55,490 nucleotides of DNA from a virus (taxonomy: Duplodnaviria; Heunggongvirae; Uroviricota; Caudoviricetes): the IMG/VR virus record IMGVR_UViG_2872185964_000005; one strand, written 5' to 3'. Every line of letters starts with the position of its first letter. Positions within the stretch are counted from its first letter, which is position 1. Shown one piece after another: positions 3,275 through 41,371 of this stretch. A program made the position numbers and the translations under genes. Under the pieces are notes generated by a model. It was not told the DNA's origin. It worked only from the letters and a program-made list of their open reading frames with translations, and searched no databases.

Positions 3275-4027
3275 TTACCCTGCAGCGCCCGCTTCAGTAA
3301 CGGTGACTTCAGCCACTGCGGCGAACTGACCATTTCCGCTCACCACAGGGATCTGCACCTTACCTGTCGCCACGCCGTTTACCGTAATTGTCATATCTTT
3401 CACACTAATGGTGGCTTTCGACGGATCGGCGGAAACCGCTCTGAACGTCTTGTCGGTTGCACTTTCCGGCTCAAAAGAAACCGTCAGGGTGGTTGTTTTC
3501 CCTTTTGCCACCGTACCGGATGTCGGCGTCACCTTAATCGCACTGACCGGCGTAATTTTGCTGCGTTCTTCCGCTACAGAAGGTTTACCCACGTTAGTGA
3601 CTTTCACCGTGCGGGTGATCACTTCTTTCGCCGTCACGGCCTTACCGATACTGCTGACCCAGCCACGAAACACATCCACCGTGCCATTCGGAAAACGGAT
3701 TTTATAGGCCCGGACATCGCCGCTTTCAAACCAGCCTATAAGCCCTTTCTGGCCTTCCTCTCCCGGTTTCCAGGCCAGCGTAAAACTGGTATCACCTGCA
3801 GATTTCTGCCCCTGCCCGGTCGCGGTCCAGTCCGCGTCTTCATCATCCAGGTAGTTATCATCGTAGGATTCTGCCGTCATCTCGCCCGGCGTCAGATCCT
3901 TCACCTTAGCCAGTCGCTGCCAGTCATCGTCTGACAACGGGTTTGCATAAGCATCACCCTTGCCGTTGTAAACCCACAGAGTGGTACCGGCACCTTTTAC
4001 CGGCTCAAGGGGATTTGGTGTTGCCAT
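3275..4027 (-). CDS. V: Major tail protein gpV with C-terminal Ig-like domain
   Basis: 250-aa ORF ...[39 protein letters not shown]... matches lambda V. Confidence 0.9.
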
Positions 4028-25073: not shown

Positions 25074-25587
25074 CAACAGCTCACCCATGCGGCTCTGACA
25101 ACGATGTTAACCCGCGTTAAATATCCCACGTTGGCCAGCATCTGTCTCACGGAAAGTCATACTGCCTTACTATCGTATTGATTGATCTGCATCAAATTAA
25201 CGTAAAAGCAACTTCAGATAATACAAATCAGCAACACTGAATATGGGGAAACATTATGTCATCAAAGAACAGAACCCGCAGAACAACAACCCGCAACATC
25301 CGATTTCCAAACCAGATGATTGAACAAATTAACATCGCTTTTGATCTGAAAGGTTCAGGAAACTTTTCAGCGTGGGTTATTGAAGCCTGCAGGAGAAGGC
25401 TGGCAACAGATGCAACGCATCTGCGCCCGGCCAGCATGACAAATAACGAGAAATGAACGTTCGGTTACAGGAGCAGGTACCCACTGTCCTCCAACAATAT
25501 TTCATCTTCATATCCGACGGAACAAGACTTACCCTGCCGGGATGTACAGAATAACAACAGAGTGATAATTAATTTCTGATGAAATAA

Positions 25588-25914
25588 TCAGGGTGCGGAA
25601 GGACTAAAGATAAACGTTTTCTTCACGCCTTTACACGGCCTGTCCTTCTCAAATCGCCATTTTGCCATCGCCTTTACAACCTGCTCATCAAACAGATGGT
25701 GCGGCTCTGAACGAATAAACTCAATTCGGGTGACAGTACCATCAGCACCAATATCAAACCTCACATCAACCCGTCCCTTTATATAATTTGCCGCTGCATA
25801 GGCCGGATATTGTGGTAATGCCTTAACCAACTGTCGGGGCATATCTGTTTTATGTTGCGTACAGCCCATAACCAGAGAAGACAACAAAATAATTAACGGA
25901 AGGTTTCTTTTCAT
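25588..25914 (-). CDS. Predicted lipoprotein with a TonB C-terminal-like domain (moron)
   Basis: Signal peptide plus lipobox MKRNLPLIILLSSLVMGC; YP.Y...G.V.V.F.I.ADG.V..I..I.S.P...FD..V..A...W.F pattern typical of TonB_C; GGGA Shine-Dalgarno. Confidence 0.6.
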   Translation of the reverse strand: MKRNLPLIILLSSLVMGCTQHKTDMPRQLVKALPQYPAYAAANYIKGRVDVRFDIGADGTVTRIEFIRSEPHHLFDEQVVKAMAKWRFEKDRPCKGVKKTFIFSPSAP

Positions 25915-26258
25915 TTTCATTCCCGGCACAGATAAGAATAAGTCTTATTCTAACAATGCCACCCTGTCGGTCATCAATCCTCTGCTTAATGGCAACGACA
26001 ATTATCCGACTTAAATCACAAATCAGACACATGACATAACAGAGCTTGCGAGGTAACACATCGTCCGGTTTCTTCCACCATCGCACCGGACCAGCGACCA
26101 TGAGGGGACAACGCCGCGCTCCGTTAACGCGGTAAACCCCGGTGTGTATCGTTTTTGATTATCCCCGCACACTCGCGCAGAGGAGTCTCCCGGTCGGGCT
26201 GCGGTCTCTGTTAATGCGGGGATACGGCGACAATACCGCGCATGGTTAATAAGGTCGC

Positions 26259-26483
26259 TCAACACACTGGCTGTAATGCAGCGGATACCATGCGGCATTT
26301 AGCGGCATTCATCGTACACTCAACGGTTAGCTCTTCATTCGTGGCATTCACCTGAAAGGTCCGGGAGTGTAATTGCGTACATTTACCACTGAACGAACCT
26401 TCAACAAGAACACGACCACGCTGCAAAATACGGAACGGAATTGTTCCCTGAAAAGGCTTTACGGTTACCAGTAATTTCTTCAT
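26259..26483 (-). CDS. Hypothetical 74-aa Cys-rich protein
   Basis: ORF with GGAGA Shine-Dalgarno 5 nt before ATG (MKKLLVTVKPFQGTIPFRIL...); no recognisable family. Confidence 0.4.
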   Translation of the reverse strand: MKKLLVTVKPFQGTIPFRILQRGRVLVEGSFSGKCTQLHSRTFQVNATNEELTVECTMNAAKCRMVSAALQPVC

Positions 26484-26509
26484 GCATTCTCCGGATAACA
26501 AAAATACTA

Positions 26510-26979
26510 GTTAATACACTGAGTGCGGATATATTCCTGCGCCCCTTCCAGTTGCTTCTGCATTGTCATCAACCGCTCTCTGAGGGTGAAATAATCCCGT
26601 TCAGCGGTGTCTGCCAGTCGGGGCCGGTTGCATTATCCATTCCGGAGGTGCCGGTGGCTTCACGCACGGTACCGGAGCAGGTGGCGTTGATCCGCAGGCG
26701 CTTACGACCAGCGGCAACATCAGCACGCAGAGTTTCATTTTCAGCTCTCGCATCGGCTAATTCCCTTGAGTATCTGGCATCAAGCGCAGCAACATCACGC
26801 TGGCGCTGCTGCATGTCAGTAATGGTTGCGTTTGCCAGCTCCAGCTCTCTGGCTTTTTTATCGCGCTGCGCTTTGTAGGTGATGGCGTTATCACGGTAAT
26901 GGTCTGTTGCCAGCCACAGCGCACCACAGACCACCAGCAGAATAACGGTAAACGCGGAAAGCATTCGGTTTATGTTCAC
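26510..26979 (-). CDS. Rz: Spanin Rz (i-spanin) with embedded Rz1 (o-spanin); apparent C-run frameshift near 26620
   Basis: N-terminus ..[42 protein letters not shown] matches lambda Rz; the alternate frame gives Rz1-like [15 protein letters not shown]; downstream frame gives [17 protein letters not shown]. Confidence 0.8.
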
Positions 26980-27107
26980 CCCAGCAGCCCCGACGAAGAC
27001 AACATCATCCAGGCCATGGAAAGAAAAAGAGCAACCAGCATTAGTGAAAATGAAATGCCGACAATTACACAGAGGATCTTCGCCAGCGTTATGAGTTTGT
27101 CTGACAT
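26976..27107 (-). CDS. Small single-pass membrane protein (43 aa), uncharacterised
   Basis: GGGAGGA Shine-Dalgarno; [43 protein letters not shown]; between endolysin and Rz. Confidence 0.45.
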
Positions 27108-27121
27108 GCTTAATCCTCCCT

Positions 27122-27304
27122 TCACGATTTCAACGCAATGACCAGTTTTGCCAGCCCATACAGCATCGGGGACACAGCAACACCGACCGCCATCCACTTA
27201 ATGGCAAAAGCCAGTGCTCTGCTGATGTCATCAGTTACAGGCGCTTTCAGTTCAAGGCCGTTTTTCATGGTCAACCTCAACAGAATTCGTTTATACTTCG
27301 CCAT
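27122..27304 (-). CDS. Small C-terminally anchored membrane protein (60 aa), uncharacterised
   Basis: AAGGGAG Shine-Dalgarno; [60 protein letters not shown]. Confidence 0.45.
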
Positions 27305-27337
27305 GTTCTCCCTTGCCTTACTCAAGGTCAGAAACAC

Positions 27338-27372
27338 AAAACCCCGCTTGGTGCCAACAAACGGGGTTTTTA
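27338..27372 (-). terminator. Hairpin with flanking A/U runs between the endolysin gene and the small membrane-protein genes
   Basis: aaaaccccg-15 nt loop-cggggtttt; the T-run is stronger on the plus strand. Confidence 0.4.
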
Positions 27373-27460
27373 CTTTTATTCACTTACGTTTCGCCAGTTC
27401 GCAGGATTTCGTGTTATCCGTCCGCGTGCTCATGCCTTATTTTTCAGCAAAATATTCTGC

Positions 27461-27994
27461 TTATCTGTCGATGTCCCAGCACGCCAGCGCACTTTCCTGG
27501 TCTCGCCGGGATACCTGACCGTAGCAATTATTTGAGCGGATACGGCAGTCTCTGCCACCGTCCTTAATCCACCAGCGAATCGCTTCGCATGCTCCCCTGC
27601 GGTCACCAGCATTAATCCGTCTGTAAAACGTCGACGGGAAACACTTACCGGGGCCAATGTTATAGGGACAAAATGACGCGATACCCGCTTTCTGGGGTTC
27701 GGTCAGCGGCACTTTAATATTGCGCTCCACCCATGCCAGCGCCTTATCACGCTCAATGGCGTTGACCTGGTCGCATTTTTCCTTCGACAACTTCATGCCC
27801 GGGACGACAGGTTTACTATCCACCAGGATGGCACCGCGGCAGATGGTCCAGATACCCGCGCCATCACGGTATGCCGTGGTGTGGTTACCTTCCTTTTCAT
27901 CCAGAAACTGGTCGAGGATTTCAGGCGCAGGCGCACCTGCGGCAATCAGCGCCAGAACGGCAGCCGACAGGCCGTATTTGATTTTGGTGTTCAT
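27461..27994 (-). CDS. R: SAR (signal-anchor-release) endolysin, lysozyme family
   Basis: N-terminal hydrophobic SAR segment LSAAVLALIAAGAPAP; ..YRDGAGIWTICRG.. catalytic region resembling P1 Lyz / phage 21 R. Confidence 0.8.
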   Translation of the reverse strand: MNTKIKYGLSAAVLALIAAGAPAPEILDQFLDEKEGNHTTAYRDGAGIWTICRGAILVDSKPVVPGMKLSKEKCDQVNAIERDKALAWVERNIKVPLTEPQKAGIASFCPYNIGPGKCFPSTFYRRINAGDRRGACEAIRWWIKDGGRDCRIRSNNCYGQVSRRDQESALACWDIDR

Positions 27995-28044
27995 GGATAT
28001 TTATCAGGGTTTATCGATTTCAAATCCCTGGATATGTTAAGTCT

Positions 28045-28389
28045 TCAGGCCAGCGGTGGAGTCTTCAGAGAACCCGTAATTATTCCCGGTAGTTTTCCTC
28101 TGTAGGTTATCAACACATCCTGCGCCTCTAAAATTACGGGGCGCTTTTCCGGCAACGGACCATCCCCTTCACATAACCCGGCAGCAACATCCATGAAAAA
28201 CTGCTTCGCCTGCTTTTTCGCCTCAGCTTCGTAAAACTCCAGCGTGGCATATTCAGTACGGTCAAGACTAATCGCCACATCTGGCAACAACAGTGACGGA
28301 TACCCACCAATTTCCAGTGCCACAGTAACAGTAATCTTATTCGGGTAATTATTTATCCCTTTAACAACCAGTTCGTATTTTTTCTTCAT
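28045..28389 (-). CDS. Hypothetical protein between holin and endolysin
   Basis: 114-aa ORF, no transmembrane segment; gene order resembles holin-ydfR-lysozyme in some E. coli cryptic prophages. Confidence 0.4.
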   Translation of the reverse strand: MKKKYELVVKGINNYPNKITVTVALEIGGYPSLLLPDVAISLDRTEYATLEFYEAEAKKQAKQFFMDVAAGLCEGDGPLPEKRPVILEAQDVLITYRGKLPGIITGSLKTPPLA

Positions 28390-28393
28390 CGCT

Positions 28394-28609
28394 TTACTCT
28401 CCCCGCGCCGCCTTACGACGGTCCTCTCTGATTTTGAAATACAGGTTAGTCAGATATGTCAGCAGCCCAAACAACAGACTCCCCAGCACGCCTATTGCCG
28501 CCCACTGAGACGGGGAAACCCTGTCCAGCAACTGCAGGAACCAGTAGCCCGTTCCCACCGCTGACGTGGTGTATGACACACCTGTTGTGATTTTTTCCAT
28601 CTGGTACAT
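28394..28609 (-). CDS. S: Pinholin, phage 21 S21 type, with dual-start motif
   Basis: ..[51 protein letters not shown] is near-identical to the S21 C-terminal sequence; two Met codons three codons apart (MYQMEK). Confidence 0.8.
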
Positions 28610-28684
28610 ACCCGTCTCCCGCAATCCGGAAGCTCACAACAATATAAAGACCACCGGCACACACCGATGGTCCCTTGCGCATGC

Positions 28685-28930
28685 TTACATCATCATGTCG
28701 CTGTCAGGTGTAGGTTCACCGCCATCTGAAGCACTCCCGTCACCCGCGATACCTTCCGGCTCAGGAACCGCTGCTACGCCCAGCAGCTCATCCAGAATGG
28801 CATCCACTTCTGCATCAAGACGCGACTCAAGATTCTGGCGAAGTTTCTGTTTCAGTGCGCTCCGGACTTCTTCAGAGCGCAGGACTTCCTTCACTGCCTC
28901 TGCAGTGACCAGGGATGTGATTTCTGACAT
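28685..28930 (-). CDS. Hypothetical acidic protein (81 aa)
   Basis: ORF from MSEITSLVTAEAVKEVLRSEEVRSALKQ...; late-operon position upstream of the holin. Confidence 0.4.
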   Translation of the reverse strand: MSEITSLVTAEAVKEVLRSEEVRSALKQKLRQNLESRLDAEVDAILDELLGVAAVPEPEGIAGDGSASDGGEPTPDSDMMM

Positions 28931-28955
28931 GGGATTTTCTCGCTGAAAGGGGTTG

Positions 28956-29138
28956 TTAAGGAGTAACGGGTTCTTCGGGTTTGCTTCCGGCTGACTGACT
29001 GGCGCTGATTTTCTCAGCGGCCCTTTTATCAATCTGCCTGCACCAGAAATCGCGCACAGCCCTGTACCCACCCGAAAGAAGATACAGCACACAGACCGCC
29101 GTACAGAAGTACAGCATCACCTGATGAATAAATGTCAT
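28956..29138 (-). CDS. Hypothetical small membrane protein (60 aa)
   Basis: MTFIHQVMLYFCTAVCVLYLLSGGYRAV... single hydrophobic helix. Confidence 0.4.
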   Translation of the reverse strand: MTFIHQVMLYFCTAVCVLYLLSGGYRAVRDFWCRQIDKRAAEKISASQSAGSKPEEPVTP

Positions 29139-29276
29139 AATTTCTTACCGTTATGGTTGACAATGAGAATTGTTTTCATTTAAAAACCAATGTACGAAAG
29201 CATCTTTTCTTTACATTCTCCATTGGGATTACCTCCGCCAGCTTCCATTCCTGCCGCTGGCGGCTTTTTTTAGCAA

Positions 29277-31154
29277 TTATGCGGCTGCTCCAGCTTTGTT
29301 TGCTTTAACTTCCACCGTATCAATAAGTACAGGGTAGGTTTCTGCACTACCTGTAATATCCGTAATGACAAACCTGTTGAGTCCATTAGCAGTATTGGCC
29401 CATTTCACCAGGTCAAACGCCTGTCCATCCACACCATCAAGCACCGGAGTAACATTAATGCTGTTACTGCCCTTAAATTTAAATGCAAGCGTATGCCAGT
29501 CATGGTCGAATGCGCCAAACGTGCCAAGTTCTTTTTGTTGATTAACTGTATGATGGTATGCAACATTAATACTGGCTTTATCTGTCTGGACAAAGAAAGA
29601 ACTCAGATGGCCTTCACCACCCTCACCCGGCCATTCCGCTATTCGCCAGTACAAACCAAAGGCATACTTGTTTCTGGTTGTCTCAAGATTGACGTTTTCG
29701 GGGATTTTAAACCGGACAGCAATTTCCCCGCCTTTTTCCAGTAAAAGTTTTGCCTTGTCTGCAGCAATATCACAGTACATTGACCAGGATTTCGCGCTGT
29801 TATTTTTCTCAATTCGCAGAGCTTTATTGCCGCTGTCATCAACCAGTGTGCGTCTGCCATACATACCGTCCCAGCCATAAGGTTTCAGCTGATTGTCTGT
29901 AGCTTTTTTGGCATCGTAAAAAATTACAGACTCTGAGGTGGTAACCGGCCTGTCTGGAACAACCACCCCGGCAGTACCATTAACAAACGCAGAAGACTTA
30001 CCCGCGCAGCTCAGAATCGCCGTTGCCAGACGGTCGGAAATAATCCCACGGCGAGCCCATGAACTGAAATGGCTCGCCCTGTCCTGTGACGTCCAGGTGG
30101 CTGAGCTGTCACGCCATTTCGAACCGTAATAACCGATACCCGGAATGTCCGGGTCTTCTTCCGGTTTGTTCGTCGGCACATTCACCCCGTTCTCATCGGT
30201 CATGAACGGTACGAAATGGATATTCTTTTCCGTTTTATTTTTATAGCTGCCGTACACCGTCTGGTACGTGGATTCGTTCTTCTGCTTCCAGAAATACGTC
30301 GTGTCCCCGCATATCCAGGGAACACCACCAGCAGAGCCACCGACGCACTGGCCTGCCATATCCGCCAGGTCTGCACGGAATTTATCAACCAGCGCACCAA
30401 ACTGTGCGGCATGATTTGCCGGCGTACCGCCAAAATCAAATTCCCCCTGCATCCACACCACGGCAAACAGCACATTTTTCGGGTTCTTCTCCAGTGCCGC
30501 TTTTGTTCGACCGATAAGGTCCTTATACAGCGGCTTGTCCACACCCCAGCGGGTTGAATTCTCCGAGGCACCACTCGCGTCACTGTATGTGCCATCAGCT
30601 CCGGTGGTGAACGCTGAACCACCACGACAGCACGGAACCAGCAGAATGCCCGCATTCGCCGGTATAAACGGCAGCAGTTTTTTGGCGATATGCAGCCCCT
30701 GCCCACGGTTCCGTACTGCCCTTTGACAGGTCCGCTTTCGGATGGTTAAGACGGCTCATGTCCTGCACATCATGCAGACAATGGTCCGCCGGAATGATGT
30801 CGTTATATTTGCATGCTGCACCGCCCGGTGTCACCGTACTGCGACGCGCCAGTTGCTTAATACGCGGGTCCGGACGGTCATATGTCCCGGCAGCGGAAGG
30901 CCTTCACCATACGACATGCCGTTTGACTGCCCTGCCAGAACCACAACAAAGTAATACTCCGGGTTGCTGGTGGCGCTGATTACTGCACCTTCTGCTGCAA
31001 TCGCCTGCATCAGAGTATAAGGGGTTATGGCCACCGGACTACCAAACGGCTGCCAGCCCTCTTTCAGTTTATGTGTCAGCTTTTCCGCAAGATCTGACGG
31101 CGACGCCGCCCTGACAACATCATAGTGTTTAAATGCCATGGTTCTTTCCACCAT
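29277..31154 (-). CDS. nanS: Prophage sialate O-acetylesterase NanS-p-like (SGNH hydrolase), reading frame broken at least twice (apparent frameshifts)
   Basis: N-terminus MAFKHYDVVRAASPSDLAEKL...YYFVVVLAGQSNGMSYGEGLPLP (SGNH GQSN motif); ORFs 30831-31154, 30595-30834, 29277-30542 colinear. Confidence 0.75.
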
Positions 31155-31399
31155 CTGAAAAATGATTCTTTAAAATACCTGACATGTAATACAGAAAAAA
31201 CACAAAACCATACCTTAAATAAAAACCTCATCATCAAGCAGATATGCATGGATAAACTACAAGACGAGATATAAACCACCCTGCATTTAAATAAACAATA
31301 AACAACATCAGAAAAATAATTCTGCTCTATGGTTTACATTCAAAAATATCATTTATACTTTTCAGAACATCACCAGCAATGCATAAACAAGGAAACCAA

Positions 31400-31735
31400 A
31401 TGAAGTGGATTGTGATTGATACAGTTATCCAGCCATCATGCGGAATATCTTTTTCAGTCATATGGAGTAAAATAAAATTAATAATCTGGTATCAATCGGA
31501 TGCTTTCTTACCTCCTGAAAGTATATTTACACTGACTCACACAGGCATCATGCTCAATAACAAAGTGCTACCTGTAACCATTTACAACGTAGTACCATTC
31601 AATAAAACATTCTGGAATTTAATCAAAAACAGCCAGGAATGCCCTACAAATACAGATAACGTATTGAATGAATGCTTTAATAACCGTTGCACTCTGCAAA
31701 TATGTCCTTATGGGCTAAAACAACAAAGTCCATAA
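31400..31735 (+). CDS. Hypothetical Cys-rich protein encoded in an AT-rich island, antisense to the phage late operon
   Basis: [25 protein letters not shown]... preceded by a very AT-rich 220-bp region; no signal peptide; no family recognised. Confidence 0.35.
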
Positions 31736-32013
31736 GGAGTTTACTCACATCTGACAAAATCAATATAAACAGCCCTCCGGAGAGGGCTGGAGAGTGGCGC
31801 TATGTGCCATTGCATGGTGCCGGGTGCCTCCCGGTGAATTCAGTACCAGCACCTGAATCCGCGATTATCCCATATACCTACTCGCTGATTGCCCCTCCGC
31901 ACAGGGGATTCACCATGCCAGTTTCTTTTAACAAACTCCCCGCAAACCAGACAACAGTCAACCGCCTGAATTGTGAGACATTTAAAAAAAAGCCCGCAAA
32001 AGCGAGCCAGGGA

Positions 32014-32090
32014 AAATAAGTGTGGCGCGTTCTACTGTATTCGAACCAGTGACCGATTGCTTAGAAGGCAATTGCTCTGTCCGGCTGAGC
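32014..32090 (-). tRNA. tRNA-Arg (anticodon UCU), one acceptor-stem and one T-stem mismatch
   Basis: Cloverleaf readable by eye: D-arm TAGCTCAGCCGGACAGAGCA, anticodon loop CUUCUAA, T-loop TTCGAAT, 3' GCCA. Confidence 0.6.
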
Positions 32091-32099
32091 TAACAACGC

Positions 32100-32189
32100 A
32101 GGATACAGATAATGAACCGCCTTCGGGACCCGAACTCCGCGCAACCAGCTTCGAAGGCTGGCGCTCTTTCCTGATGAGCTAATGGCGGT
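32100..32189 (-). other. tRNA-like sequence (possible degenerate tRNA-Arg, anticodon UCG); T-arm does not fold cleanly
   Basis: D-arm TAGCTCATCAGGAAAGAGC and anticodon arm CCAGC-CUUCGAA-GCUGG are intact, T-stem pairing is poor. Confidence 0.3.
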
Positions 32190-32262
32190 ATGTGATAGTG
32201 GCCCTTGCTGGATTTGAACCAGCGACCTGGCGATTATGAGTCGCTCGCTCTCACCACTGAGC
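32190..32262 (-). tRNA. tRNA with CAU anticodon (Ile2/lysidine type or Met), prophage ileZ-like
   Basis: GGCCCTTTAGCTCAGTGGTGAGAGCGAGCGACTCATAATCGCCAGGTCGCTGGTTCAAATCCAGCAAGGGCCA folds as a canonical cloverleaf. Confidence 0.75.
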
Positions 32263-32320
32263 TAAAGGGCCGGGAGCAGAATAATAATGGTGCGTAATTA
32301 ATTCTGCAATCTCATCCGTT

Positions 32321-33368
32321 TCAAACGATTAAATCCTGAACTTCCCTGACTGTCTGCTCAAAACGTCCTGTCTCCAGTTCAACGCCAATCGCACGACGCC
32401 CGAGCGCCAGTGCCGCTTTTACCGTTGAACCCGACCCCATGAAAAAATCCGCAACCAGATCACCAGGACGACTACTTGCGCTGATTATCTGCTGCAGCAT
32501 TTCTGCCGGTTTTTCGCACGGATGTTTCCCGGGATAGAACTGCACCGGTTTATGTGTCCACACATCCGTGTACGGCACCTGCGCCGTCACACCAAAATAC
32601 CGCCGCAGATGTTTATATTCACTCTGCAGCTCCGCATACTGTCGGTTCAGTGAAGTATACGTATCCACCAGCTGGTGGTGGGGCTTTTCCAGTTCCCCCG
32701 CTGATGCTTCTCTTCTGCCACCCTGGCAAACAGTGCCTGTAATTTCAGATAATCGCTTTCGTTCGGCAACTGCCACTGACTGGCACTGAACCAGTGCGAC
32801 ACCATGTTTTTCTTTCCTGTGGCATCTGCAATCTGTTTTGCCGTTATCCCCAGGGCCGCGCATGCATCACGAAAGTAAGAAATCAGCGGGCCATCACATG
32901 CTGTTTCAGTGCCCTGCCCTTCGCCTCATACCCGGCATCTTTCGGACGATACGGCCCCTGATAATGTTCCGCGAACAGAATGCGCTCTGTGGCGGGGAAA
33001 TACGCCCGCAGGCTTTCCTTGTTGCACCCGTTCCAGCGTCCGGAAGGCTTCGCCCAGATAATATGGTTCAGCACACTGAAGCGTTCACGCATCATGATTT
33101 CGATATCAGATGCCAGGCGATGACCACAGAACAGGTAAAGACTTCCGGCAGGTTTCAGCACCCGCCAGAACTGCGCCAGACACTGGTCCAGCCACTTCAG
33201 GTAATCATCGTCGCCCTTCCACTGGTTATCCCAGCCCTCAGGCTTCACTTTAAAGTACGGCGGGTCCGTGACTATCAGGTCAACAGAATTTTCGGGTAAC
33301 GACCGGATAAATTCCAGGCAGTCGGCGTTGATTAACTCACAACTGGATATTTTTACAGTATTAAGCAT
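32321..33368 (-). CDS. Orphan DNA methyltransferase (N6-adenine/N4-cytosine class, motif IV before motif I); apparent frameshift near 32870
   Basis: DLIVTDPPYF (motif IV) in ORF 32883-33368 and FFMGSGSTVKAAL (motif I) in ORF 32321-32863; no adjacent restriction endonuclease gene. Confidence 0.75.
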
Positions 33369-33518
33369 GGATCATTAAGCCTGTCTCTGATAGGCTCATT
33401 CTGCTTTTGCGCAAAGCAGTGGGCCTGAGGTTTGCTTGTGAACCCAACGCATGAGCAGATGGCTGGTGGGTGCCCCTAACACCCACCAGCCGCCCATTTA
33501 CCACAAATAAAAAAGCCT

Positions 33519-40962: not shown

Positions 40963-41127
40963 CCATAGTGACATCCTCATGTGCGAATTTTGAAAACTCA
41001 CCACATGGGACGCCAATCACAGAGGTGGTGAGACGTACAGGGTTGGCGTAACCGGTCGCACATGACCCCGGCGCATCTTTCGATGCCCCTGCACGCCCCA
41101 CCATAATTTGGATGTGAGGAAACGTGC

Positions 41128-41152
41128 GCAAAAAAACCGCTGAAGCGCGGTT
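41128..41152 (-). terminator. Intrinsic terminator between the two Rha-family genes (tR1-like position)
   Basis: Minus-strand aaccgcgc-uucagc-ggutt stem followed by uuuuuuu. Confidence 0.5.
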
Positions 41153-41371
41153 ATGCGCATGTGCGAATTTCAGGACGCCAATCCCGGCACCCGCTTTATA
41201 AGGTGCGGAGACAGTGTAACGTCCCGAAATTGCAGAATCAATATTTGGTCTTGAAATGATCATATAGCTGCTGATATCTTTAGAACTGTTCTTGGATGTT
41301 TCGGAGCCGTTTTATGCGAAACAGCTCCCCGTTATTGATGTTGAGTGAGCCGGGTTACTCCCGGCTTTTTT

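Follow-up and report, generated by a model that had tools for sequence, protein, structure and literature searches.

The interval between the endolysin gene (R) and the spanin gene Rz was analyzed in a stretch of tailed-phage DNA of 55,490 nucleotides (nt) (Caudoviricetes; IMG/VR record IMGVR_UViG_2872185964_000005), hereafter called the window. It contains a hairpin and two small open reading frames (ORFs), designated ORF1 (60 amino acids [aa]) and ORF2 (43 aa). Judged by sequence comparison, this R–Rz interval is a recombination-prone accessory slot that carries two unrelated modules and not a dedicated endolysin-to-Rz device. The hairpin and ORF1 constitute one discrete cassette (27116–27381), and ORF2 is a separate block linked to Rz. 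A preliminary description, made from the letters of the window, had located the hairpin and the two ORFs, each with its Shine-Dalgarno sequence, between R and Rz; its positions and descriptions were all correct, on the minus strand. Its view of the three elements as a single insert did not hold.

The textbook lysis module consists of four genes (PMC2629481). In the Escherichia coli K-12 prophages Qin and DLP12, R and Rz share 4 nt and nothing is inserted between them, so that the window does carry an insertion relative to phage 21-type and lambda-type cassettes, as had been proposed. Because Qin and DLP12 lack both ORFs, neither is needed for a standard holin-endolysin-spanin cassette, and these two cassettes offer no named K-12 small protein as a counterpart. 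We surveyed 232 related loci, which represented 95 unique R–Rz slot sequences. The order hairpin-ORF1-ORF2 was present in the majority of loci in this sample, which is biased toward close relatives. Ten or more alternative contents were found in the same slot. They included ant-ORF2 in Shiga toxin (Stx) phages, among them P13374 with ORF2 as its ORF53; a second type of ant followed by a 31-aa ORF (ORFa) and ORF2, with or without a half-length ORF1 (ORF1') and a 28-aa ORF (ORFd); hairpin-ORF1 alone in Salmonella, in one case after ant; and ORF1-ORF2 followed by a DNA methylase gene. The comparison with related prophage cassettes, which the preliminary description had suggested, thus found the elements conserved and the interval a mosaic accessory slot.

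The breakpoints of homology coincided with ORF boundaries, at 27375, 27121, 27107, and 26976. In Stx-type loci, the match to the window ended at 27375 and resumed at 27107. Salmonella loci matched only 27381–27116, that is, the hairpin and ORF1, and then again inside Rz. ORF2 (27107–26976) and the C-terminal half of ORF1 (27238–27121) moved as separate blocks. A profile-profile comparison of ORF1 with ORF2, performed for the possibility that they are paralogues, was negative.

The 561-nt segment was present at a coverage of at least 80% in 988 of 5426 complete E. coli genomes, as two hypothetical proteins, and was also found in the E. coli phage isolates PhiR5_2 and PhiR12_1-5. The ORFs are carried by plaque-forming phages such as PhiR5_2 and PhiR12; PhiR5_2 and PhiR12_1 have 96% identity over the segment. 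Two side observations concern the mosaic itself. In PhiR5_1 (locus L005) and phiSTEC1589-Stx1c (locus L004), the R–Rz interval contains a run of four mini membrane ORFs whose stops and starts overlap, in the order ORFa (31 aa), ORF2, half-length ORF1 from a GTG, and ORFd (28 aa, ending RWW). In addition, some database 'proteins' of 71–90 aa have arisen by frameshifts that fuse halves of ORF2 and ORF1.

Both ORFs are under purifying selection as coding sequences. We calculated the ratio of nonsynonymous to synonymous substitution (dN/dS) from DNA variants drawn from 243 related sequences (the window segment and the fetched loci). The ratio was 0.18 for ORF1 (25 unique variants; 15/5/36 variable sites at the three codon positions) and 0.38 for ORF2 (24 unique variants; 19/14/24), the third codon position being the most variable in both. 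In the other two reading frames of the same bases it was 0.8–4.0, the values for ORF2 being 0.8 and 1.5. ORF length and start were kept across copies of 65–100% identity.

The hairpin at 27338–27370 is GC-rich and has 13 base pairs, a 7-nt loop, an A-tract upstream, and a T-tract downstream. It was detected by both the terminator scan and RNA folding, and it is the sole A-tract/stem/T-tract hairpin of that type in the window. With T-tracts on both flanks of the stem, it looks like a bidirectional intrinsic terminator. Pairing was kept at 98% across 12 variants, with two pairs altered on both sides; the base of the stem was invariant and the top was variable. The hairpin was located 5' of ORF1 in all 62 unique ORF1-bearing R–Rz slots (seven with one stem mismatch) and 5' of the ORF1-family gene in 10 of 11 diverse loci, in both cases 30–110 nt upstream of the gene. 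Because it accompanies ORF1-family genes in this way, the hairpin belongs to ORF1 and not to the endolysin gene, and it is best regarded as the 5' boundary of the ORF1 cassette.

A role of the hairpin as the 3' terminator of R was ruled out: it follows ant in a Salmonella locus (L159) and baseplate or tail genes in loci L249–L260, always just ahead of an ORF1-family gene. Neither the hairpin nor the adjacent stretch 27373–27460 matched a known RNA family in Rfam; the sole hit was a sub-threshold rimP-leader, attributable to the terminator. We also considered a Pas small RNA (sRNA) at the hairpin. According to a preprint, PasA and PasD2 flank an esterase gene and adjoin the holin/lysozyme operon (Zhu, Shabalina, Storz 2026). 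We read this text as placing them upstream of the holin gene instead, and the candidate was rejected, a sequence comparison not being possible.

The non-coding stretch directly 3' of the endolysin stop (27373–27460, minus strand, 88 nt) lies outside the ORF1 cassette, given that homology to Stx-type loci reaches 27375 and then breaks. This stretch of about 90 nt is common to E. coli, Stx phages, and Salmonella prophages. It is kept after an unrelated GH19 endolysin gene in locus L160 and is missing where ant precedes the hairpin (L159). It could be a 3' untranslated region element or an sRNA. In Stx phages, the next element after this stretch is a terminator-like hairpin other than that of the window, GGCACCGTAATGGTGCC.

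The ORF1 family extends well beyond this slot. A profile search of 1.84 billion representative proteins yielded 22 hits at E <= 0.001; those examined were short unannotated peptides, save one 928-aa repeat protein judged spurious. With a second profile search, members were also found in Klebsiella, Serratia, Yersinia, and Enterobacter, so that the family spans six genera with conserved motifs, Escherichia and Salmonella being the other two. Matches to PHROG families confirmed the membership of the distant copies and identified ORFd as a short member. ORF1 homologues were found directly before Rz in a Yersinia enterocolitica prophage remnant; between two baseplate genes in Klebsiella, Serratia, and one metagenome contig; behind the genes for tail-fibre assembly in E. 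coli and Enterobacter; and, in metagenome contigs, behind those for capsid or tail-tip proteins. In Salmonella they precede Rz with three combinations of holin and endolysin, including a lambda-type holin with a GH19 enzyme. Related cassettes that carry the same upstream hairpin thus occur at many late-operon junctions of Enterobacterales prophages. Because the homologues adjoin endolysins that are not of the signal-arrest-release (SAR) type as well as baseplate, capsid, and tail-fibre genes, a role specific to the SAR endolysin and the pinholin is unlikely.

Two loci contain further variants of this layout. In L258 (2400–3400), near-identical hairpins stand before and after an ORF1 homologue that follows a capsid gene, and the homologue is followed by four more called mini-ORFs of 32–59 aa. 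In L253 (3230–3504), an unrelated 54-aa tail-anchored ORF lies beside a distant E. coli ORF1 paralogue in the same cassette layout; this second cassette has a double hairpin, a leader, and an antisense promoter-like site, TTCACA-16-TAAAAT. Taken together, L253 and L258 suggest a wider class of hairpin-plus-mini-ORF cassettes.

ORF1 (27122–27304, minus strand) starts with ATG at 27304, ends with TGA at 27124–27122, and has the Shine-Dalgarno sequence GGGAG at 27312–27308. Its 5' leader (27305–27337, minus strand) folds into a small conserved stem (CCUUG...CAAGG) that overlaps the Shine-Dalgarno sequence. The leader is nearly invariant between E. coli and Salmonella copies, with variation only in the loop. 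The AlphaFold model consists of two helices, residues 2–14 and 23–59, with a predicted local distance difference test score (pLDDT) of 75. The N-terminal helix is basic and amphipathic, and the C-terminal transmembrane helix is moderately hydrophobic (mean Kyte-Doolittle [KD] hydropathy 1.86) with an N-flank charge of +5. The protein is therefore predicted to be tail-anchored with its N-terminus inside.

ORF1 was assigned to phrog_1115/4493 (E 1.5e-41), which is annotated as 'unknown function', and had no match in Pfam, NCBIfam, or PADLOC. Members of the PHROG families of ORF1 and ORF2 occupy the same position, after the endolysin gene or before Rz; example records are RefSeq WP_001151823.1 and WP_001280932.1 and ORF53 of phage P13374 (YP_006906870.1). 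The preliminary description had recognised no family for the two small membrane proteins, which agrees with the empty Pfam, NCBIfam, and PADLOC searches and with PHROGs labelled only 'unknown function'. The hidden Markov model (HMM) searches and structure predictions that it had proposed found no holin or spanin homology, gave helical transmembrane models for both proteins, and added membership in PHROG families.

In the Salmonella copies L155–L162 (around 3470–3510), a 25-nt insertion gives rise to an upstream ORF of 8 codons, MCREVCSL, with a stop that overlaps the GTG start of ORF1. The insertion also adds a stem, GGGAGG…TTCCCT, across the ORF1 Shine-Dalgarno sequence. This arrangement resembles the leader-peptide coupling of the mok/hok type.

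A candidate antisense RNA would cover the start of ORF1. The promoter scan detected a sigma-70-like motif, TGGTCA-18-TATACT, at 27268–27297 on the plus strand, inside ORF1 codons 3–12 and directed at the hairpin. No other promoter-like site was detected near ORF1. The predicted antisense RNA would extend from about 27304 to 27380 on the plus strand (about 77 nt), spanning the start codon and Shine-Dalgarno sequence of ORF1, and it folds as a 5' stem plus terminator (z-score -2.7). The motif was in the same relative position in 7 of 11 loci, including those of Salmonella, Klebsiella, Serratia, and Enterobacter and an E. coli paralogue. The Serratia version, TAGTCA-18-TATAAT, has 10 of 12 matches, and the 42%-identical E. 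coli paralogue has TTTACC-16-TATACT, made with different codons. Synonymous sites of ORF1 codons 3–16 are unusually invariant. The motif and the hairpin together suggest cis-antisense control, as in type I toxin systems. The preliminary description had listed a membrane toxin module among the candidate roles; the conserved antisense promoter-like site and the bidirectional terminator give this some support for ORF1. ORF2 has no counterpart of the antisense motif.

In a consensus scan of about 200 nt to each side of the ORF start, which may overlook weak or non-sigma-70 promoters, 10 of the 11 homologous loci gave no sense promoter on the coding strand. The lone hit, in locus L156, lies upstream of the hairpin. 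Because no sense promoter was detectable, both genes are probably transcribed only from the late transcript.

ORF2 (26976–27107, minus strand) starts with ATG at 27107, ends with TGA at 26978–26976, and has the Shine-Dalgarno sequence GGGAGG at 27120–27115. AlphaFold modelled it as one helix, residues 2–38 (pLDDT 88), and its single transmembrane segment is very hydrophobic (mean KD 2.89). It was assigned to phrog_4906 (E 2.1e-23), also annotated as 'unknown function'; Pfam gave only a sub-threshold match to DUF3930, and NCBIfam and PADLOC gave nothing. A tblastn search matched ORF2 in 276 phage records, mostly of Stx1/Stx2 phages, and the match usually had no annotated feature.

The stop of ORF2 overlaps a GTG at 26979 in the Rz frame (GTGA, 26976–26979, minus strand). 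In 76 of 83 unique slots, the ORF2 stop was 11–16 nt before the annotated Rz ATG, over an upstream GTG. The GTGA overlap is an arrangement typical of translational coupling, and a start at the GTG would supply the only basic residue of Rz ahead of its membrane anchor. On the simplest reading, ORF2 may be a single-pass peptide co-translated with Rz. The possibility that ORF2 is a copy of the Rz membrane anchor was rejected, as ORF2 did not align with Rz. In the Rz gene of the window itself, we observed a 1-nt deletion (a missing C in a C-run) near 26623 relative to loci L001, L002, and L008. The deletion swaps the Rz and Rz1 frames: the Rz1 profile matches the end of the 'Rz' ORF, and Rz1 has an abnormal terminus. 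The deletion is either a homopolymer sequencing error or a genuine change that inactivates both spanin genes.

From these features we tentatively favor, with somewhat less than even confidence, a mechanism in which ORF1 and ORF2 are late-expressed accessory membrane proteins, ORF1 being toxin-like and lysis-assisting and ORF2 being coupled to Rz. The Q-antiterminated late transcript would read through the hairpin, and ordinary transcription would stop there. ORF1 would then insert tail-first into the inner membrane late in infection, perturb the membrane, and assist lysis like a type I toxin. In the lysogen, ORF1 would be kept silent by the terminator and perhaps also by a short cis-antisense RNA, starting in ORF1 codons 3–12 and ending at the same hairpin read in the opposite direction, which would repress translation of ORF1. 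ORF2, a single-pass peptide, would be produced together with Rz through coupled translation and could be auxiliary at the membrane or at the spanin step. Overall, both have the look of ordinary accessory membrane proteins, expressed late and possibly assisting lysis. A bolder version appears doubtful to us: the hairpin and ORF1 would represent an undescribed, mobile family of type I toxin-like elements, silent in the lysogen and aiding membrane collapse at lysis, and ORF2 would be an overlooked fifth component of the Stx-phage lysis cassette that is co-translated with Rz. Each such element would combine a bidirectional terminator, a tail-anchored mini membrane protein, and a cis-antisense RNA with its start in the first codons of the gene, and would move among lysis, baseplate, capsid, and tail-fibre junctions in the late operons of Enterobacterales prophages.

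Several observations weigh against the favored mechanism. The antisense motif lies in codons of a conserved peptide, and constraint on the protein may be what has conserved it. Four of the 11 loci lack the motif, the most distant homologues among them, and the promoter scan found no more sites than in shuffled sequence. Classical type I toxin genes have a sense promoter, whereas the scan gave no sigma-70-like match for the coding strand of the R–Rz interval. A terminator inside baseplate operons, in phages that may lack antitermination, is awkward. The adjacency of ORF2 and Rz may be linkage only, with a methylase gene between them in some phages. Frameshifted or deleted copies of both ORFs occur in prophages in a few slots, and the sample of loci, taken as the best 80 hits per search, is skewed to close relatives.

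The same observations were examined under other explanations. That ORF2 is an accessory of the spanin, either a partner of the Rz membrane anchor or mainly a translational coupler that sets the dosage of Rz/Rz1, is unlikely in our judgment, although it would account for the GTGA overlap, for the stop within 16 nt of the Rz ATG in most slots, and for the position of ORF2 directly before Rz in Stx phages whatever precedes it. The 4-nt overlap of R with Rz in empty slots likewise makes it appear that coupling is maintained here. However, Rz genes of the same family in Salmonella and Yersinia are preceded by ORF1-type genes or by nothing, without ORF2; in some phages a methylase gene or other mini-ORFs lie between ORF2 and Rz; ORF2 has no similarity to Rz; and linkage at a recombination boundary can explain the adjacency. 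Still less probable is that ORF1, ORF2, or both regulate the timing of the pinholin/SAR-endolysin pair through helix-helix contacts, as an antiholin or releasin does; regulation of lysis timing had been among the roles listed in the preliminary description. Both ORFs do lie inside the lysis cassette right after the SAR endolysin gene; the hydropathy of the ORF1 helix is close to that of the best holin window (1.70) and of the SAR segment (1.74); the helix has small-residue spacing, G41xxxS45 and Y49G50; and a separately encoded membrane regulator of a SAR endolysin exists in Mu gp25 (PMC9239132). Against this, ORF1 homologues occur with a lambda-type holin and GH19 endolysin, with HP1-type holins, and outside lysis cassettes altogether; K-12 Qin has a P21-type holin and a YdfR gene yet lacks both ORFs; and neither ORF matched a DUF2730 or holin HMM, their topology and size being unlike those of gp25.

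Expression from the prophage, for lysogenic conversion or superinfection exclusion with the membrane of the host protected or modified, is improbable. Exclusion had been among the roles proposed in the preliminary description, and it fits with ant and methylase genes sharing the slot and with the general knowledge that small membrane-protein morons in late operons often serve the lysogen (PMC2629481). It is disfavored by the lack of a coding-strand sigma-70-like promoter, both between R and Rz and near the ORF start in 10 of 11 loci, by the terminator immediately upstream on the coding strand, and by the lack of a PADLOC match. Very improbable, finally, is the reading of the elements as non-functional leftovers of recombination, that is, chance ORFs beside an ordinary terminator. 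The slot is highly mosaic with frameshifted and truncated copies, ORF2 is unannotated in most database records, and the prophage of the window is itself decayed. This reading conflicts with a dN/dS well below 1 only in the proposed frames, with the length and start kept between divergent copies, with an ORF1 family that spans six genera with conserved motifs, and with the presence of the ORFs in plaque-forming PhiR5_2 and PhiR12.

The usual teaching is that phage lysis cassettes for Gram-negative hosts comprise holin, endolysin, and spanin; extra conserved genes for mini membrane proteins are usually missed by annotation. The genes described here occur in about a fifth of complete E. coli genomes and in most Shiga-toxin phages. 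Should ORF2 tune Rz/Rz1 synthesis or the action of the spanins, or should ORF1 prove to be a membrane toxin under antisense control, the timing of lysis would be affected, and with it the release of phage and Shiga toxin. The toxin reading, if true, would also enlarge the small set of type I toxin systems known in prophages by one family. Even without a phenotype, the endolysin-Rz junction would be a hot spot for accessory genes and hairpin-ORF1 a traceable mobile module.

The lysis region around these elements lies on the minus strand. The P21-type holin gene (28394–28624) matched PF04971 and is followed by a DUF1327/YdfR gene (28045–28389), located between the holin and endolysin genes. This gene is a further non-canonical member of the cassette, and K-12 Qin has the same holin-YdfR-endolysin arrangement. 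The endolysin gene R (27461–27994) encodes a SAR-type lysozyme (Phage_lysozyme PF00959, E 2.8e-24) whose N-terminal segment, residues 9–27, is weakly hydrophobic and SAR-like in hydropathy. Beyond ORF1 and ORF2, Rz (26569–26979; PF03245) contains the embedded Rz1 (26601–26753; PF06085). Two more ORFs lie downstream of Rz on the minus strand and are possible further accessory genes: a 113-aa ORF (25588–25929) with a lipoprotein-like signal (…LVMGC) and a TonB_C domain (PF03544, E 1e-14), and an 80-aa ORF (26259–26501) without a family match.

The prophage around the lysis region is lambda-like and decayed. By inspection, without a family scan, no terminase-sized ORF was seen directly after Rz before an insertion-sequence copy at about 23.8–25.1 kb, and the prophage therefore looks truncated. 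Three identical IS3-family frameshift pseudoknots (Rfam ALIL; 18091–18207, 24624–24740, and 44750–44866) mark three insertion-sequence copies. Among complete E. coli genomes, the best coverage of window 21000–33500 was 56%. A terminator-like hairpin (28646–28675, minus strand) lies just upstream of the holin gene, and STnc100 sRNA and three tRNA genes (31759–31947 and 32026–32271, minus strand) lie further upstream. The PasA/PasC sRNAs of the above preprint adjoin the holin/lysozyme operon, and PasD is related to STnc100 (Zhu, Shabalina, Storz 2026). Elsewhere in the window, C4 antisense RNA and the isrK Hfq-binding RNA stand side by side (41021–41108 and 41130–41206, minus strand), which is the antisense immunity arrangement of the P1/P7 type, as in Gifsy-type prophages.

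We compared the elements with known systems, and on this comparison they are best described as late-operon accessory genes without a characterised homologue. Literature searches with the accessions of ORF1 and ORF2, their peptide strings, and the PhiR12 phages found no mention of them, and a search on small membrane proteins in lysis cassettes found nothing relevant. PADLOC defence models matched neither ORF nor YdfR. As in holins, each product is a small lysis-cassette protein with at least one transmembrane domain (one helix each), and neither matched holin profiles (Pfam Phage_holin_*, PHROG 'holin'). The charged C-terminal tail of holins was not found: ORF1 ends ...ALKS and ORF2 ends ...SSSGLLG, with net C-flank charges of +1 and 0, compared with +3 over 17 residues in the S21-type holin. 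Inner-membrane spanins combine an N-terminal anchor with a coiled-coil domain in the periplasm, and outer-membrane spanins have a lipoprotein signal with a lipobox Cys. Neither ORF matched the spanin profiles PF03245 and PF06085. Only about 14 residues follow the helix in ORF2 and 2 in ORF1, and there is no lipobox in either, the sole Cys (ORF2 C13) following a Leu inside the helix.

P2 LysA is a membrane protein with four transmembrane segments; its gene lies between endolysin gene K and lysB and affects lysis timing. The 99-aa releasin Mu gp25 is anchored by a transmembrane segment at its N-terminus (N-out, C-in), and its acidic cytoplasmic domain comprises 73 aa (PMC9239132). Like both of these, ORF1 and ORF2 are small membrane proteins beside endolysin and spanin genes and outside the holin-endolysin-spanin triad, whereas the ORF1 family is also found outside lysis cassettes. 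A releasin (DUF2730) was ruled out for ORF1 and ORF2 by the lack of a Pfam match and by size and topology; in contrast to gp25, ORF1 has its helix at the C-terminus and a basic cytoplasmic part with a net charge of +5, and there is no sequence relationship.

The size and hydrophobicity of ORF1 and ORF2 (60 and 43 aa, one transmembrane helix each) are those of type I toxins. Neither showed homology to the described families (Hok, Ldr, Ibs, TisB, Zor, and others) in Pfam or NCBIfam, and the consensus scan found no promoter of its own for ORF1. In the hokW-sokW system of the Sakai prophage Sp5, a type I toxin helps in the lysis and release brought about by the phage (PMC8621323). Like hokW-sokW and hok-mok-sok, ORF1 is predicted to be a small hydrophobic inner-membrane protein with a candidate cis-antisense RNA over its ribosome-binding site. 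Unlike hok systems, it has no Hok homology, no Sok or other Rfam match, and no detectable toxin promoter, and its membrane helix is C-terminal.

In phage P22, the sar RNA is complementary to the ribosome-binding site of ant, an arrangement that the layout at ORF1 resembles. The P22 'ant moron' is controlled by a small antisense RNA, sar (PMC2629481); by comparison, the antisense RNA at ORF1 is only predicted. Unlike morons, the present cassette has its terminator upstream and not downstream and no promoter of its own was detected, and its products would be mini membrane proteins and not regulators. Insertion between otherwise adjacent genes is nevertheless evident from the R–Rz overlap in Qin and DLP12, the breakpoints at 27375, 27107, and 26976, and the alternative slot contents. 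As with lambdoid morons, variable genes have been inserted at one junction and are in rapid flux, with ant homologues in the same slot.

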